Shown here: in pieces, positions 38,220 to 53,019 of the stretch
Numbering within the stretch: the first letter of the stretch is position 1
Layout of the letters: each line of letters opens with the position of its first letter
From: Methanobacteriota archaeon
GTDB taxonomy: Archaea; Thermoplasmatota; E2; DHVEG-1
Assembly (NCBI GenBank): GCA_963769885.1
Contig: CAVYNH010000007.1
Coordinates: 384,001-448,000, forward strand
Direction: 5' to 3'
Length of the DNA: 64,000 nt
The notes under the pieces: generated by a model
What the model saw: the letters and a program-made list of their open reading frames with translations, nothing else
Told to the model about the DNA's origin: nothing
Databases searched by the model: none
Made by a program: the position numbers and the translations under genes

Positions 38220-39581
38220 TTAGAGGACGTGGAAGTACCGCGCGGTCTCCCAGGCGGTGACCTGCATTTGGTACTCCTCCCATTCCGTGCGCTTGATTGC
38301 TATGAAGTTTTCGAAGACGTTGCTGCCTAGGGCGTCCCTGATGAAAGTGCTCTTCTGCATGATCTCCAGGGCATGGCCGAGGCTTTCGGGGAGCTGGCCG
38401 ATGCCGTACGATGCCCGTTCCTTGGGGGTCAGTGCGTAGATGTTACGTTCGACGGGTTCCGGGGCTTTGAGTTTGCGTTTGATACCGTCAAGGCCGGCGG
38501 CGATCATGACGGTGTAGGCGAGGTAGGGGTTGCAGGCGACGTCTGGGTTGCGCAGTTCGATACGCGTCGCCTGTCCACGGTTCGCTGGGATGCGGATGAG
38601 GGAGCTGCGGTTGCGGTTCGCCCAGCAGATATAGGTGGGGGCTTCGTAGCCGGGGACGAGGCGTTTGAAGGAGTTCACGGTCGGGTTGAGGACGGCGCAC
38701 ATCTCCCGGGAATGGGTGAGGAGCCCGGCGAGGAATGAGTACGCAAGCGGGCTGAGTTTGTGCTTGTCTCCTGGGTCATAGAAGGCGTTCTTGCCGGCTG
38801 GCGTGCACATCGAAATGTGGGTATGCATCCCTGAGCCGTTCGTCCCAAAGAGGGGCTTGGGCATGAACGAGGCGTACAAACCATGGCTGTCAGCGATGAT
38901 TTTACTCACGTATTTCAAGGTGATGACGCGCTCCGCTGTCGTGAGTGGGTCGGCGTAGTTGAAGTTGATCTCCTGCTGTCCGGGGGCGACCTCATGGTGC
39001 GTGGTGTAGATCTCGAGGCCGAGCTGCTGCAATGCCATGGCGATGTCCGCCCGGACGGTTTCTGCCAGGTCACGGTGGGAGAGGTCGAAGTAGCCGGCGT
39101 TGTCATGCGGCAGCAAGGTCGGACCGTCGCTGTTTCGCTGGAAGAGGAAGAATTCGCATTCAGAGCCGGTATTGCAGCGGTACCCGAGTTTGTCCGCCTT
39201 TTGCAATATCTGTTGTAGTACGTATCGGACGTCGCCGGGGAAGCGTTGTTTTCCGTCCTGTTCATAGATGTCGCAGCTGATTTTCGCGGTCTTCCGTGGC
39301 TCGATGCTCTCAGGGATGATGCTGAAGCTGGCGGGGATTGGGCGGATGACCTTGTCTGATTCTTCGATGTTGGCACAGCCGATGATGGACGAGGCGTCGA
39401 ACGGGATCCCGTTGTCCAACGCGTCCTTGAGGAGTCCTGAGGGGATGACGAGGTTGCGCGGCATCCCGAGAAGGTCGACGAACTGGAGGCGGATGAACCG
39501 GATGTTCTCATGGGCAACAGTCGATAGGATAGAGTCCGCAGTCCAGAATTCAGCCGATTTCGTCGACGTTACGTTTTTCAT
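38220..39581 (-). CDS. glnA: Glutamine synthetase type I
   Basis: FIRLQFVDLLG, FDASSI, ECEFFLF, HHEVAPGQQEI, FMPKP..NGSGMHTH, KRLVPGYEAP, NRSSLIRIP, RIELRNPD. Confidence 0.96.
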   Translation of the reverse strand: MKNVTSTKSAEFWTADSILSTVAHENIRFIRLQFVDLLGMPRNLVIPSGLLKDALDNGIPFDASSIIGCANIEESDKVIRPIPASFSIIPESIEPRKTAKISCDIYEQDGKQRFPGDVRYVLQQILQKADKLGYRCNTGSECEFFLFQRNSDGPTLLPHDNAGYFDLSHRDLAETVRADIAMALQQLGLEIYTTHHEVAPGQQEINFNYADPLTTAERVITLKYVSKIIADSHGLYASFMPKPLFGTNGSGMHTHISMCTPAGKNAFYDPGDKHKLSPLAYSFLAGLLTHSREMCAVLNPTVNSFKRLVPGYEAPTYICWANRNRSSLIRIPANRGQATRIELRNPDVACNPYLAYTVMIAAGLDGIKRKLKAPEPVERNIYALTPKERASYGIGQLPESLGHALEIMQKSTFIRDALGSNVFENFIAIKRTEWEEYQMQVTAWETARYFHVL

Positions 39582-39822
39582 CTATAAAACCTCCACCCGA
39601 AAGAGCATACTTCATCCCGTATGGACGCACGCCCTTTTTTAATTTCCGAAACAGCTGATTCCCCCCCTGCTTCGTCGCCTCCTCGCGTACGGACATTTTT
39701 CGAGGAAAAAATGACGAAGAGGACAGGAGGAGGGCCCCCGTTGCTCGAAATTACAATCCTTCGCAAACTATTAAAAGAAAAAACAGATTCGGACCACCAA
39801 ATATACCCGGGGAGTTGCCTTC

Positions 39823-50806: not shown

Positions 50807-51637
50807 ATGTTTGAGATTCTTGAGAAGAAGATCCTCTCGCCGAATGAGAAGTTGATGAAGATCCGGGCGCCGCTCATCGCCCGGAAGGCGCAGGCCGGCC
50901 AGTTCGTCATTCTCCGCATCAACGAGCAGGGAGAACGGATCCCGCTGACCATCGCAGACTACGATAGAGACGACGGCACCATCACCATCATCTTCCTCGA
51001 AGTCGGCAAATCCACGAAACAGCTAGGAAGGCTTGAAGTGGGAGACTCGCTCTTGAACCTCGCCGGGCCCCTCGGCATGCCCTCCGACATCAAAAACTAC
51101 GGCACCGTCGTCCTCATCGGCGGCGGCGTCGGCATCGCCCCCCTCTATCCCATCGTCCGCGCGATGAAAGCCGCCGGCAACCACGTCATCTCCATCCTCG
51201 GCGCACGATCAAAGGACCTCATCATCCTCGAAGAAGAGATCTCCGAATATAGCGACGAGTTCTACATCACCACCGACGATGGATCCAAAGGGTCAAAAGG
51301 CTTCGTCAGCGACCTCCTCGACAAAATCATCCAACAGAAGGAAAAGAAGATCGATCTGGTCATGGCCATCGGCCCCGTCATCATGATGAAGGTCGTCTCC
51401 GACCTCACCAAGAAATACAACATCCGGACCCTGGTCAGTCTGAACCCGATCATGGTAGACGGCACTGGGATGTGCGGCGGCTGCCGCGTCTCGGTCGGCG
51501 GCAAGACGAAGTTCGCCTGTGTCGACGGCCCCGAATTCGACGGCCACCTCGTCGACTACCAGAACCTCATGCTTAGAAACCAACGATTCATCGGTCATGA
51601 GAAAGACGCCTGCAAGCTCCTGGAGGAGACGAAATGA
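50807..51637 (+). CDS. nfnA: NfnA/SudB FAD-[2Fe-2S] subunit of electron-bifurcating transhydrogenase
   Basis: GERIPLTIAD, GGGVGIAP, TDDGS, MVDGTGMCGGCRV..CVDGPEF. Confidence 0.9.
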   Translation: MFEILEKKILSPNEKLMKIRAPLIARKAQAGQFVILRINEQGERIPLTIADYDRDDGTITIIFLEVGKSTKQLGRLEVGDSLLNLAGPLGMPSDIKNYGTVVLIGGGVGIAPLYPIVRAMKAAGNHVISILGARSKDLIILEEEISEYSDEFYITTDDGSKGSKGFVSDLLDKIIQQKEKKIDLVMAIGPVIMMKVVSDLTKKYNIRTLVSLNPIMVDGTGMCGGCRVSVGGKTKFACVDGPEFDGHLVDYQNLMLRNQRFIGHEKDACKLLEETK

Positions 51638-53019
51638 GCGTGCAGAAGACGAAGCATCCGATGCCGCAGCAGCGGCCGGAGGAACGGATCCATAACTTCC
51701 GGGAAGTCCCACTCGGATACGAACGAGATGTCGCAATCGCAGAGGCAAAACGCTGCCTGCAATGCAAGAACCGCCCGTGCATGAAAGGCTGCCCCGTCGA
51801 AATCGACATCCCCGGGTTCCTCCACTGCATCACGCTCGGTAAGTTCGAGAAGGCCGCGGAAATCATCCGGGCCAAGAACAACCTGCCGGCGGTCTCTGGC
51901 CGGGTTTGCCCGTATGAGGATCAATGCGAAGGAGAATGCACATTGAAGAAGGCAGGGGAGCCGGTCGGCATCGGGCGGCTCGAGAGGTTCATTGCGGATT
52001 ATGAGCGGACGAAGGGGGCCGTGGTGCCGCCGCGGCCGCCATCGAACGGGAGACGGGTTGCGGTCGTCGGCTCAGGGCCGGCAGGATTGACGTGCGCGGG
52101 AGATCTCGCAAAGATGGGCTACGAAGTTGTCGTCTTTGAGGCACTGCATGCCCCAGGCGGGGTCCTTATGTACGGCATCCCGGAGTTCCGGCTGCCGAAG
52201 GCTATCGTCCATTCCGAGGTCGATTATATCAAGAAGTTGGGCGTCCAGATCGACTATGATATGGTCGTCGGCAAGTCCATCACCGTCCCGGAACTACTGC
52301 AGGAGTTCGATGCGGTGTTCCTGGGAACCGGGGCTGGATTGCCGAACTGGTTGAACATCCCTGGTGAGAATCTGGATGGGGTATATTCAGCGAACGAGTT
52401 TCTGACGCGGGTGAATATGATGAGGGCATACGAGTTCCCTCGGTCGGATACCCCGGTGAAGATCGGCCGGATCGTGGCGACATTTGGCGCAGGCAACGTC
52501 GCAATGGACTGCGCGCGGACCGCGCTACGGCTAGGAGCAGAAAAGTCCTATATTCTGTACCGGCGGACAGAGGCGGAGATGCCGGCGCGGGTGGAGGAGA
52601 TTGAGCACGCGAAAGAAGAAGGCGTAGTCTTTAGGCTCTTGACCAACCCTGTCCGATTCATTGGGACGGAGAAAGGACTCCTCAAATCAGTCGAGTTTTT
52701 GAAAATGAAGCTCGGGGAGCCTGATGAGTCTGGTCGGCGTCGTCCCGTGCCGATTCCCGGCTCGGAGGAGATTTTGGATATCGACACCGCGGTGGTGGCG
52801 ATCGGGCAGAGTCCGAACCCGCTCGTCCCGCGATCCCTACCTGGTCTGAAGCTAGGGAAGCACGGGAATATCATCACGGATGAGGATGGCCGGACGTCAA
52901 TCCCTGGCGTGTTCGCGGGTGGTGACATCGCGACCGGGGCGGCGACCGTGATCCTGGCGATGGGGGCGGGAAAGAAGGCCGCCCGAGCAATCGACCAGTA
53001 CATCAAGGAGAAAAAATAG
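51634..53019 (+). CDS. nfnB: NfnB/SudA GltD-like NADPH-binding Fe-S flavoprotein
   Basis: EAKRCLQC..C..GCPV, GRVCP..QCE, GSGPAGL, YGIPEFRLPK, GAGNVAMD, FAGGD; ATGA coupling to nfnA. Confidence 0.9.
   Translation: MSVQKTKHPMPQQRPEERIHNFREVPLGYERDVAIAEAKRCLQCKNRPCMKGCPVEIDIPGFLHCITLGKFEKAAEIIRAKNNLPAVSGRVCPYEDQCEGECTLKKAGEPVGIGRLERFIADYERTKGAVVPPRPPSNGRRVAVVGSGPAGLTCAGDLAKMGYEVVVFEALHAPGGVLMYGIPEFRLPKAIVHSEVDYIKKLGVQIDYDMVVGKSITVPELLQEFDAVFLGTGAGLPNWLNIPGENLDGVYSANEFLTRVNMMRAYEFPRSDTPVKIGRIVATFGAGNVAMDCARTALRLGAEKSYILYRRTEAEMPARVEEIEHAKEEGVVFRLLTNPVRFIGTEKGLLKSVEFLKMKLGEPDESGRRRPVPIPGSEEILDIDTAVVAIGQSPNPLVPRSLPGLKLGKHGNIITDEDGRTSIPGVFAGGDIATGAATVILAMGAGKKAARAIDQYIKEKK

Follow-up and report, generated by a model that had tools for sequence, protein, structure and literature searches.

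A glutamate dehydrogenase gene cassette with dikinase-like proteins, a nucleotidyltransferase domain and a metallophosphoesterase: a candidate post-translational switch in archaea and bacteria

Glutamine synthetase (GS) is regulated by the textbook GlnE/GlnD cascade, and glutamate dehydrogenase (GDH) connects carbon metabolism with that of nitrogen. We know of no dedicated post-translational switch that has been established for GDH in prokaryotes; older work reportedly saw bacterial GDH reversibly inactivated in vivo, as in Bacteroides fragilis. Here we describe a locus within a 64,000 nt stretch (the window) of contig CAVYNH010000007.1 from an archaeon of the Thermoplasmatota. In this locus the gene for an archaeal-type GDH, gdh2, is followed by two genes for large dikinase-like proteins, A and B, and by a convergent gene for a metallophosphoesterase, MPE. 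We propose, at a probability of about 0.55, that gdh2, A, B and MPE are a self-contained, horizontally mobile cassette in which the three accessory proteins control their own dedicated GDH post-translationally. A, B and MPE are probably an undescribed GDH switch rather than genes of sugar metabolism, and full-text literature searches found no paper on the system. The coordinates of the genes and domains are given in Table 1.

The closest characterised analogue of the two dikinase-like proteins is VadK (Rv1127c) of Mycobacterium tuberculosis, a truncated pyruvate phosphate dikinase (PPDK) that phosphorylates itself on His422 and has methylcitrate-cycle enzymes as interaction partners (PMC13400623). 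VadK serves as a regulator through these interactions. Like A and B, it has an ATP-grasp and a His domain without the pyruvate-binding barrel, a comparison made at the level of the superfamily. Unlike them, it is only approximately 490 amino acids (aa) long, its His domain is canonical, it carries neither sensor nor nucleotidyltransferase (NTase) domains, and it is neither accompanied by a phosphoesterase nor linked to GDH. The second comparison is with EI-Ntr (PtsP), in which a GAF domain binds glutamine and controls autophosphorylation of the swivel His (PMC4848567). B resembles EI-Ntr in the fusion of an N-terminal GAF sensor to a predicted swivel-His enzyme. However, EI-Ntr uses phosphoenolpyruvate (PEP) and not ATP, passes its phosphate to NPr and EIIA-Ntr, and has no ATP-grasp, NTase or GDH linkage. 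A post-translational modification of GDH has been described in mammals, where SelO AMPylates and inhibits GLUD1 (PMC12375108). SelO has an unrelated pseudokinase fold, and the site on GLUD1 belongs to the antenna, an animal-specific element that the cassette GDHs lack.

The locus was first described in an earlier note made from the DNA sequence alone, which listed glnA divergent from gdhA and gdh2, a dikinase-like pair, a convergent phosphoesterase and nfnAB. The open reading frame (ORF) listing and profile searches confirm that all of these are present. Of the two gaps given in that note, the 6 nt between A and B is correct, but the gap between gdh2 (stop codon at 42619-42621) and A (ATG at 42635) is 13 nt and not 14. 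The stop codons of B and MPE overlap in a single CTAG at 48865-48868. A longer ORF of 472 aa for MPE was ruled out because every orthologue begins at the GTG at 49698, which gives a protein of 277 aa.

The conserved core of the locus runs from gdh2 through A and B to the convergent MPE (41299-49698). We searched 201 whole genomes of the phylum and extracted 20 archaeal loci. B is present in 30 of the 201 genomes, from at least four families. In all 18 of the Thermoplasmatota loci that could be assessed, gdh2 is directly 5' of A and B then follows A, and MPE is convergent on B in 19 of the 20 archaeal loci, which span families f1, f21, f37 and f39. A cassette-type GDH (at least 67% identity, where the next best GDH has at most 54%) is encoded in 28 of the 201 genomes, and 27 of these 28 also encode B. 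These GDHs make up a distinct clade. The mismatches between GDH and B (G089, G178 and G026) and the divergent G162 are accounted for by contig ends or incompleteness. In one locus (L041, G194:C11) the cassette gdh2 and B are each split into two ORFs, by a frameshift or an assembly error.

The genes on either side of this core are less constant. gdhA is upstream of gdh2 in nine of the 20 archaeal loci, and, apart from L047, L135 and L149, only in family f1 is nfnAB beside the module; nfnAB is a local neighbour and not part of the core. For glnA, adjacency to the cassette is confined to the family of the window (L031, L050-L053); neither families f21, f37 and f39 nor the cassette-bearing bacterial loci have it in that neighbourhood. 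It is a neighbour by family-level synteny only and lies outside the conserved unit. This distribution bears on whether the module sets the GS-GDH node as a whole by modifying GS as well as, or instead of, GDH. The divergent arrangement of glnA and gdhA, here and in the closest relatives, would fit such a role, as would one further locus (L067, G168:C12) in which the gene for an 864-aa B-like PPDK_N protein is immediately followed by a glnA-like gene. No other such hint was seen, however, and the GPGRWGS motif of the swivel-like domain is missing from the L067 protein. We consider a role in modifying GS very unlikely.

In order to follow the cassette beyond the phylum, a pattern scan was made with one genome per species. 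At least 599 places match, of which we examined the best 80. Over a dozen bacterial phyla are represented, as are Thermoplasmata and Thalassarchaeaceae, and carriers of the cassette include Acidobacteriota, Chloroflexota, Planctomycetota, Bacteroidota, Ignavibacteriales, Chrysiogenia and Eisenbacteria. A complete GDH ORF is present in 39 of the best 80 loci and lies within 500 bp of a member of the dikinase-like family in 35 of those 39. Among the loci of at least 18 kb there is a GDH gene in 27 of 37. The arrangement of GDH with this family is far beyond chance. Relatives are present in cultured gut Bacteroides, and a profile of the swivel-like domain described below retrieves 1,730 cluster representatives at E <= 1e-10.

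In 120 loci, B with its NTase and MPE occur together in 34, B alone in two and MPE alone in none (neither, 84). The corresponding counts for B with its NTase and the cassette GDH are 32 with both, four with B only and three with GDH only (neither, 81), and all seven exceptions sit at contig ends. The four cassette genes remain together despite occasional reordering (L073, L092, L094 and L105). Identity between archaeal and bacterial proteins is 60-71% for the cassette GDH in comparison with 35-44% for A and 42-58% for B, a pattern suggestive of horizontal transfer of the unit and of tight constraint on the GDH. The earlier note had named the absence of a conserved linkage to gdh or glnA as grounds for rejecting its proposal. 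For gdh this ground falls away: in several archaeal families and in many phyla of bacteria, the dikinase-like pair, the NTase and the phosphoesterase are linked to a GDH gene. glnA adjoins the cassette in the window's own family only.

Homologues of A and B carry the database names 'pyruvate, water dikinase', 'pyruvate, phosphate dikinase' and 'phosphoenolpyruvate synthase', and these names are what favours the view that A and B are simply PEP synthases or PPDKs of the usual kind, placed beside gdh by chance. With PEP synthase, PPDK and RPH they share the PPDK_N ATP-grasp domain, which scores over the gathering threshold in both and has its catalytic residues, followed by a small beta/alpha carrier-like domain with a conserved His. 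However, they have neither the PEP/pyruvate TIM barrel (PEP-utilizers_C; there is no PF02896 match in either protein) nor the rifampin-type substrate domain of RPH, and the sensor domains of both proteins and the NTase of B are extra fusions. The canonical PEP-utilizers profile (PF00391) misses the carrier-like domain of A and B, yet recognises a canonical one elsewhere in the same genome. In addition, the genome encodes a complete, canonical PEP synthase on contig 6, which gives its only PF02896 match. Because the catalytic barrel is missing and the synteny, with its recurring GDH linkage, is conserved across phyla, this view is refuted as far as sequence allows and we give it practically no credence.

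The fourth PPDK_N gene of the genome, also on contig 6, was rejected as a relative of the cassette genes because its product is RPH-like with a canonical mobile domain and its neighbour is a UbiA gene. This protein (L169; G000:C6:397000-413000, ORF 7888-10407) is a phosphotransferase of 839 aa with PPDK_N and canonical PEP-utilizers domains, encoded directly after the UbiA gene, and the two may be a lipid or small-molecule phosphotransferase pair.

A is arranged as two receiver-like domains (REC1-like and REC2-like), the PPDK_N ATP-grasp domain and a swivel-like His domain. In an alignment of 18 orthologues the ATP-grasp residues G444-G445-K446, R537-S538-S539, E783, E785, Q804 and R806 are invariant. 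The REC1-like domain matches receiver domains in a PDB profile search (E 1e-4); its Response_reg score is 26.4 bits against a cut-off of 30.2, receiver-like Pfam scores being 23-26 bits overall, and Phe106 is present in 17 of the 18 orthologues. The pocket residues of the REC2-like domain are kept in nine to 12 of the 18 orthologues and in the paralogue A' (see below), and are degenerate in family f21. In most bacterial cassettes A is short (approximately 580 aa) and consists of the ATP-grasp and swivel-like domains only.

The domain that follows the ATP-grasp is confidently modelled in A (pLDDT 90.4), and its invariant His927 is placed at the N-terminus of a helix. The closest folds are the phosphoryl carrier domain of PPDK (2fm4, Z 6.9 over 118 residues), residues 756-867 of RPH (5hv1, Z 6.5), the PEP-utiliser-like domain of pyruvate kinase (Z 6.2) and residues 381-514 of maize PPDK (Z 6.1). 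The Z-scores are middling, and it is the dominance of the top ranks by the very domain that holds this place in dikinases that suggests a divergent swivel-like carrier domain at the C-terminal position shared by A and B. Foldseek alone gave zero matches at E <= 0.001 for either model. The earlier note had called A and B 'PPDK_N-only', a description that has to be given up, as each appears to bear this divergent domain after its ATP-grasp.

In B the order of domains is GAF, helical, PPDK_N ATP-grasp, swivel-like His and a minimal NTase. The 20 orthologues aligned have a mean column identity of 63%, and the ATP-grasp residues and the swivel His857 are invariant in all of them. No GAF profile was matched in a Pfam search of B, but the model of its N-terminus has a clear GAF fold, with matches to many GAF structures at Z 11-13.8 (root-mean-square deviation 1.9-2.8 over 111-125 residues). 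The best of these are DosP (9bgv, Z 13.8), NifA (8jrc, Z 12.2) and PtsP (3trc, Z 11.3). Structure comparison gave no assignable match for the helical domain. At the C-terminus the NTase is recognised by PF01909 (30.6 bits against a cut-off of 21), with a Polbeta match too and weak PDB profile matches to the MNT-like 2rff and to kanamycin NTase. The pattern hG[GS]-x9-13-DxD plus a third carboxylate is present, and the residues concerned (G970-S971, D982, D984 and D1027) are invariant in the 20 orthologues. A HEPN partner, as in HEPN-MNT modules, was not detected by Pfam in B or in neighbouring genes.

MPE has the motifs DLHG, GGDLLP, GND(D/N), LFHSPP and HGHVHE, so that all metal ligands are kept in its 18 orthologues. 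The His of GNH[DE], which is typical of PPP-type monoesterases, is replaced; the orthologues read GNDD at this motif and the MPE of the window reads GNDN. Intact metal ligands with loss of this His are what we take to be the pattern of the diesterase subgroup (YfcE/MJ0936). Metallophos matches were obtained for all 21 MPE proteins and Metallophos_2 matches for 14 of the 21. MPE shares with YfcE, MJ0936 and aq_1956 the calcineurin-like fold, the metal ligands, the replaced His and matches to Metallophos_2 and Metallophos_3. The similarity is distant, however, even to the nearest solved structures (aq_1956, 2yvt, E 0.017; YfcE, 1su1, E 0.6), and MPE has a family-specific insert, PPTPFxLKDWExYDVS.

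The earlier note proposed that a writer and an eraser modify GDH and/or GS. The idea of a writer and an eraser fits these data, because the NTase-bearing B and MPE co-occur almost strictly and MPE has the diesterase-type motif set; GS as the target is not borne out, since glnA is linked only in the window's family. In its logic the proposal would resemble the GlnE/GlnD system, in which a pol-beta-superfamily NTase and a dedicated means of removal act on an enzyme of ammonium assimilation. The parts differ. The NTase of B is minimal and MNT-like (approximately 120 aa), whereas GlnE has tandem NTases with a linker and GlnD has HD and ACT domains, and neither GlnE nor GlnD models are among the NCBIfam or Pfam matches of B. 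Additionally, removal would be by a metallophosphodiesterase rather than by phosphorolysis or an HD domain, and the linked enzyme is GDH and not GS.

A third class of paralogue, A', is 31-34% identical to A with the same architecture, and is found in genomes without A and B. In four sister genera A' occupies the exact syntenic slot of the window (HTH-glnA divergent from gdhA-A'-nfnA-nfnB-pyrG). Thalassarchaeaceae-like genomes and many bacteria also encode it next to gdhA, the orientation differing between them (gdhA-A' adjacency in L051-L054, L059-L062 and many bacterial loci). A-type proteins go with both classes of GDH, and B and MPE with the cassette GDH only. Natural fusions of A and B exist (P0297-P0299), each with two PPDK_N and two swivel-like stretches, and P0299 has an NTase match. 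We read A as the effector, with the signal entering either in cis, through the receiver-like domains, or in trans, through B.

Several other arrangements were seen around A'. In Bacteroidales (L076, L087, L095, L103, L120, L131 and L149) a free-standing protein of approximately 120 aa, equivalent to the GAF domain of B (B residues ~25-145), is encoded ahead of two tandem A'-type genes, so that the sensor is a separate polypeptide there. The A'-type proteins P0389 and P0397 (1524-1557 aa) have an extra N-terminal region of approximately 750-950 residues, largely without assignment, and some A' proteins have weak DUF5752 (PF19027) matches just ahead of the ATP-grasp. A Metallophos gene that adjoins A' in Bacteroides was rejected as an MPE orthologue; its product is an unrelated lipoprotein-type enzyme.

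To our knowledge, the characterised enzymes with PPDK_N and swivel domains, with the exception of VadK, all act on small molecules or glucans. A and B could accordingly work in the way of rifampin phosphotransferase, PigC or glucan water dikinase, as phosphotransferases or ligases with a His relay. Together with the NTase and MPE they would make or recycle a metabolite that bears a phosphate or nucleotidyl group and is connected with glutamate, 2-oxoglutarate or GDH's pyridine nucleotide. Weak NCBIfam similarity to PigC, RedH and RPH is consistent with this, and B's helical domain could serve as a substrate-binding site. However, no other pathway enzyme or transporter was found inside the cassette, and GAF and receiver-like sensor domains dominate the non-catalytic parts of A and B. 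The pairing of two types of GDH with two paralogues also fits recognition of a specific protein better than a shared metabolite. For these reasons a small-molecule pathway seems unlikely.

The product of gdh2 is a hexameric-type GDH with both ELFV domains, closest among solved structures to the GDH of Thermococcus (1euz, E 6.5e-124). Its score of 484.6 bits for the GdhA_Arch equivalog does not reach the cut-off of 750 bits. Cassette GDHs have two clade-specific insertions, S254-C-W256-D257-Q258 and residues 288-298. These are directly after beta-B of the dinucleotide fold, where the 2' position of the coenzyme is read. Co-folding, which the earlier note had suggested as a check, was carried out with GDH2 (residues 15-440) and the core of A (residues 430-1000), using paired alignments of 27 rows and three controls. 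The pair scored 0.48 (runs of 0.48, 0.48 and 0.54), where the best control scored 0.00; the runs concur in at least 94% of contacts and the pLDDT of the partner is 79. This passes a mark attained by 58 of 80 solved complexes and two of 110 mismatched pairs, but scores of 0.60 or less at the mark are found for seven of the 80 solved complexes and for both of the passing mismatches, so that the support is weak. Given the strong genomic prior, the result nudges the odds towards a physical contact between GDH and A without establishing one.

A mechanism can be outlined. A would be the effector that docks on GDH. Its swivel His would be autophosphorylated in the manner of a dikinase (ATP to AMP, Pi and His~P), after which A would phosphorylate GDH, or bind it in a manner dependent on His~P, perhaps close to the insertion that marks the cassette GDHs at the coenzyme 2' site. 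B would provide the signal input, its GAF domain sensing a metabolite, for example 2-oxoglutarate or an amino acid such as glutamine. The NTase of B would nucleotidylate GDH or A, and MPE would remove this mark by phosphodiester hydrolysis. Where A' is alone beside gdhA, the input would come from its own receiver-like domains. The most specific form of this proposal is a two-tier covalent GDH switch that combines a GAF-gated nucleotidyl mark, set and removed by the NTase and MPE, with transfer of phosphate from the His~P of A to GDH at the clade-specific insertion. We put this form forward tentatively, as possible rather than probable.

GDH might instead be regulated without covalent modification, if A and B autophosphorylate, and possibly nucleotidylate themselves, and bind GDH according to their state, with MPE acting to reset the regulators and not GDH. 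There is a precedent for this in the role proposed for VadK with methylcitrate synthase (PMC13400623). The weak co-folding pass suggests a docking interface over a transient enzyme-substrate contact, and the A' module works without an eraser gene. On the other hand, the strict pairing of an intact NTase with a diesterase-type MPE suggests a mark that is written and erased, though possibly on A or B. On balance we regard regulation by binding alone as rather doubtful.

Several points count against post-translational control of GDH by the cassette as proposed here. We infer the chemistry of modification, the target residue and the direction of regulation. The structural matches of the swivel-like domain are middling (Z < 8), and the domain has no PF00391 match at E <= 5 and no PDB profile match. 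An hhalign comparison with the canonical PEP-utilizers domain of the same genome gave a probability of 0.7%, over the terminal 'IDG.tG' strand only. The co-folding pass sits in the weak band, and the A' module lacks a dedicated eraser. No fusion of GDH to PPDK_N was found among the 120 longer GDH-containing proteins listed, which is weak evidence. Finally, in approximately a quarter of the long loci, among them those from Desulfobacterales and gut Bacteroides, GDH is missing from the surrounding 10 kb, and the dikinase-like family probably has other targets or acts in trans.

Table 1. Genes of the locus and predicted domains of A and B (window positions)
Feature	Position	Strand	Remarks
glnA	38220-39581	(-)	GS type I; TIGR00653 494 bits
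gdhA	39823-41160	(+)	Bacterial NADP-type GDH; PRK09414 775.8 bits; divergent from glnA
gdh2	41299-42621	(+)	Archaeal-type GDH, 440 aa; Pfam ELFV_dehydrog and ELFV_dehydrog_N
A	42635-45670	(+)	1011 aa; PPDK_N E 2.6e-33
A, REC1-like pseudo-receiver	42764-43174	(+)	Residues ~44-180; Phe106 in acceptor Asp position
A, REC2-like	43202-43594	(+)	Residues ~190-320; E194, D195, D264, S297, K314; from alignment with A'
A, swivel-like phospho-His carrier-like domain	45074-45616	(+)	Residues 814-994; motifs GPGRWGS and QGSH(927)FF
B	45677-48868	(+)	1063 aa; PPDK_N E 7.7e-54 and NTP_transf_2 E 4.5e-7
B, GAF	45740-46156	(+)	Residues ~22-160; N-terminal helix motif E-R-x-K-E-L-x-C-x-Y
B, helical domain	46157-46762	(+)	Residues ~161-362; all-helical model, pLDDT ~70-85
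B, swivel-like	47897-48439	(+)	Residues 741-921; GPGRWGS and FGTH(857)FFQDLVE; aligned with the domains of A and A'
B, minimal pol-beta NTase	48509-48865	(+)	Residues ~945-1063; G970-S971 ... D982-x-D984 ... D1027
MPE	48865-49698	(-)	277-aa metallophosphoesterase; GTG start; convergent on B
UPF0227-like alpha/beta-hydrolase ORF	50107-50598	(+)	163 aa; between MPE and nfnA; GLSLGG nucleophile elbow
nfnA-like	50735-51637	(+)	NF004862 423.8 bits
nfnB/gltA-like	51634-53019	(+)	TIGR01316 625 bits

Outside the core, the stretch of approximately 1 kb from the start of MPE to nfnA (49699-50734) corresponds to a gap of approximately 140 bp in a genome of the same genus (G167), and with its hydrolase ORF looks like a lineage-specific insertion. 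An ArsR/HTH_5-like protein of 150 aa is encoded directly downstream of glnA (37672-38124, minus strand). It is kept beside glnA across the family (L031, L050-L053) and is therefore a candidate nitrogen regulator. On the other side of the locus, at 53031-55161, there are two adjacent divergent genes of the UbiA prenyltransferase family, whose starts slightly overlap, followed by the gene for CTP synthase. An Rfam scan of the window gave a tRNA-Arg as the sole match.

If the cassette acts as we propose, it would be a dedicated post-translational switch for GDH. The covalent two-tier form, if true, would make A the first PEP-synthase/dikinase-type protein kinase acting on a metabolic enzyme, and the system the counterpart, for GDH, of the GS adenylylation cascade. 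It might also account for the reversible inactivation of bacterial GDH. The analysis also corrects a systematic mis-annotation, by which databases label genes of the cassette as PEP synthase or pyruvate phosphate dikinase. Additionally, it extends the finding made for VadK, in that PPDK-derived proteins may form a broad class of metabolic regulators.

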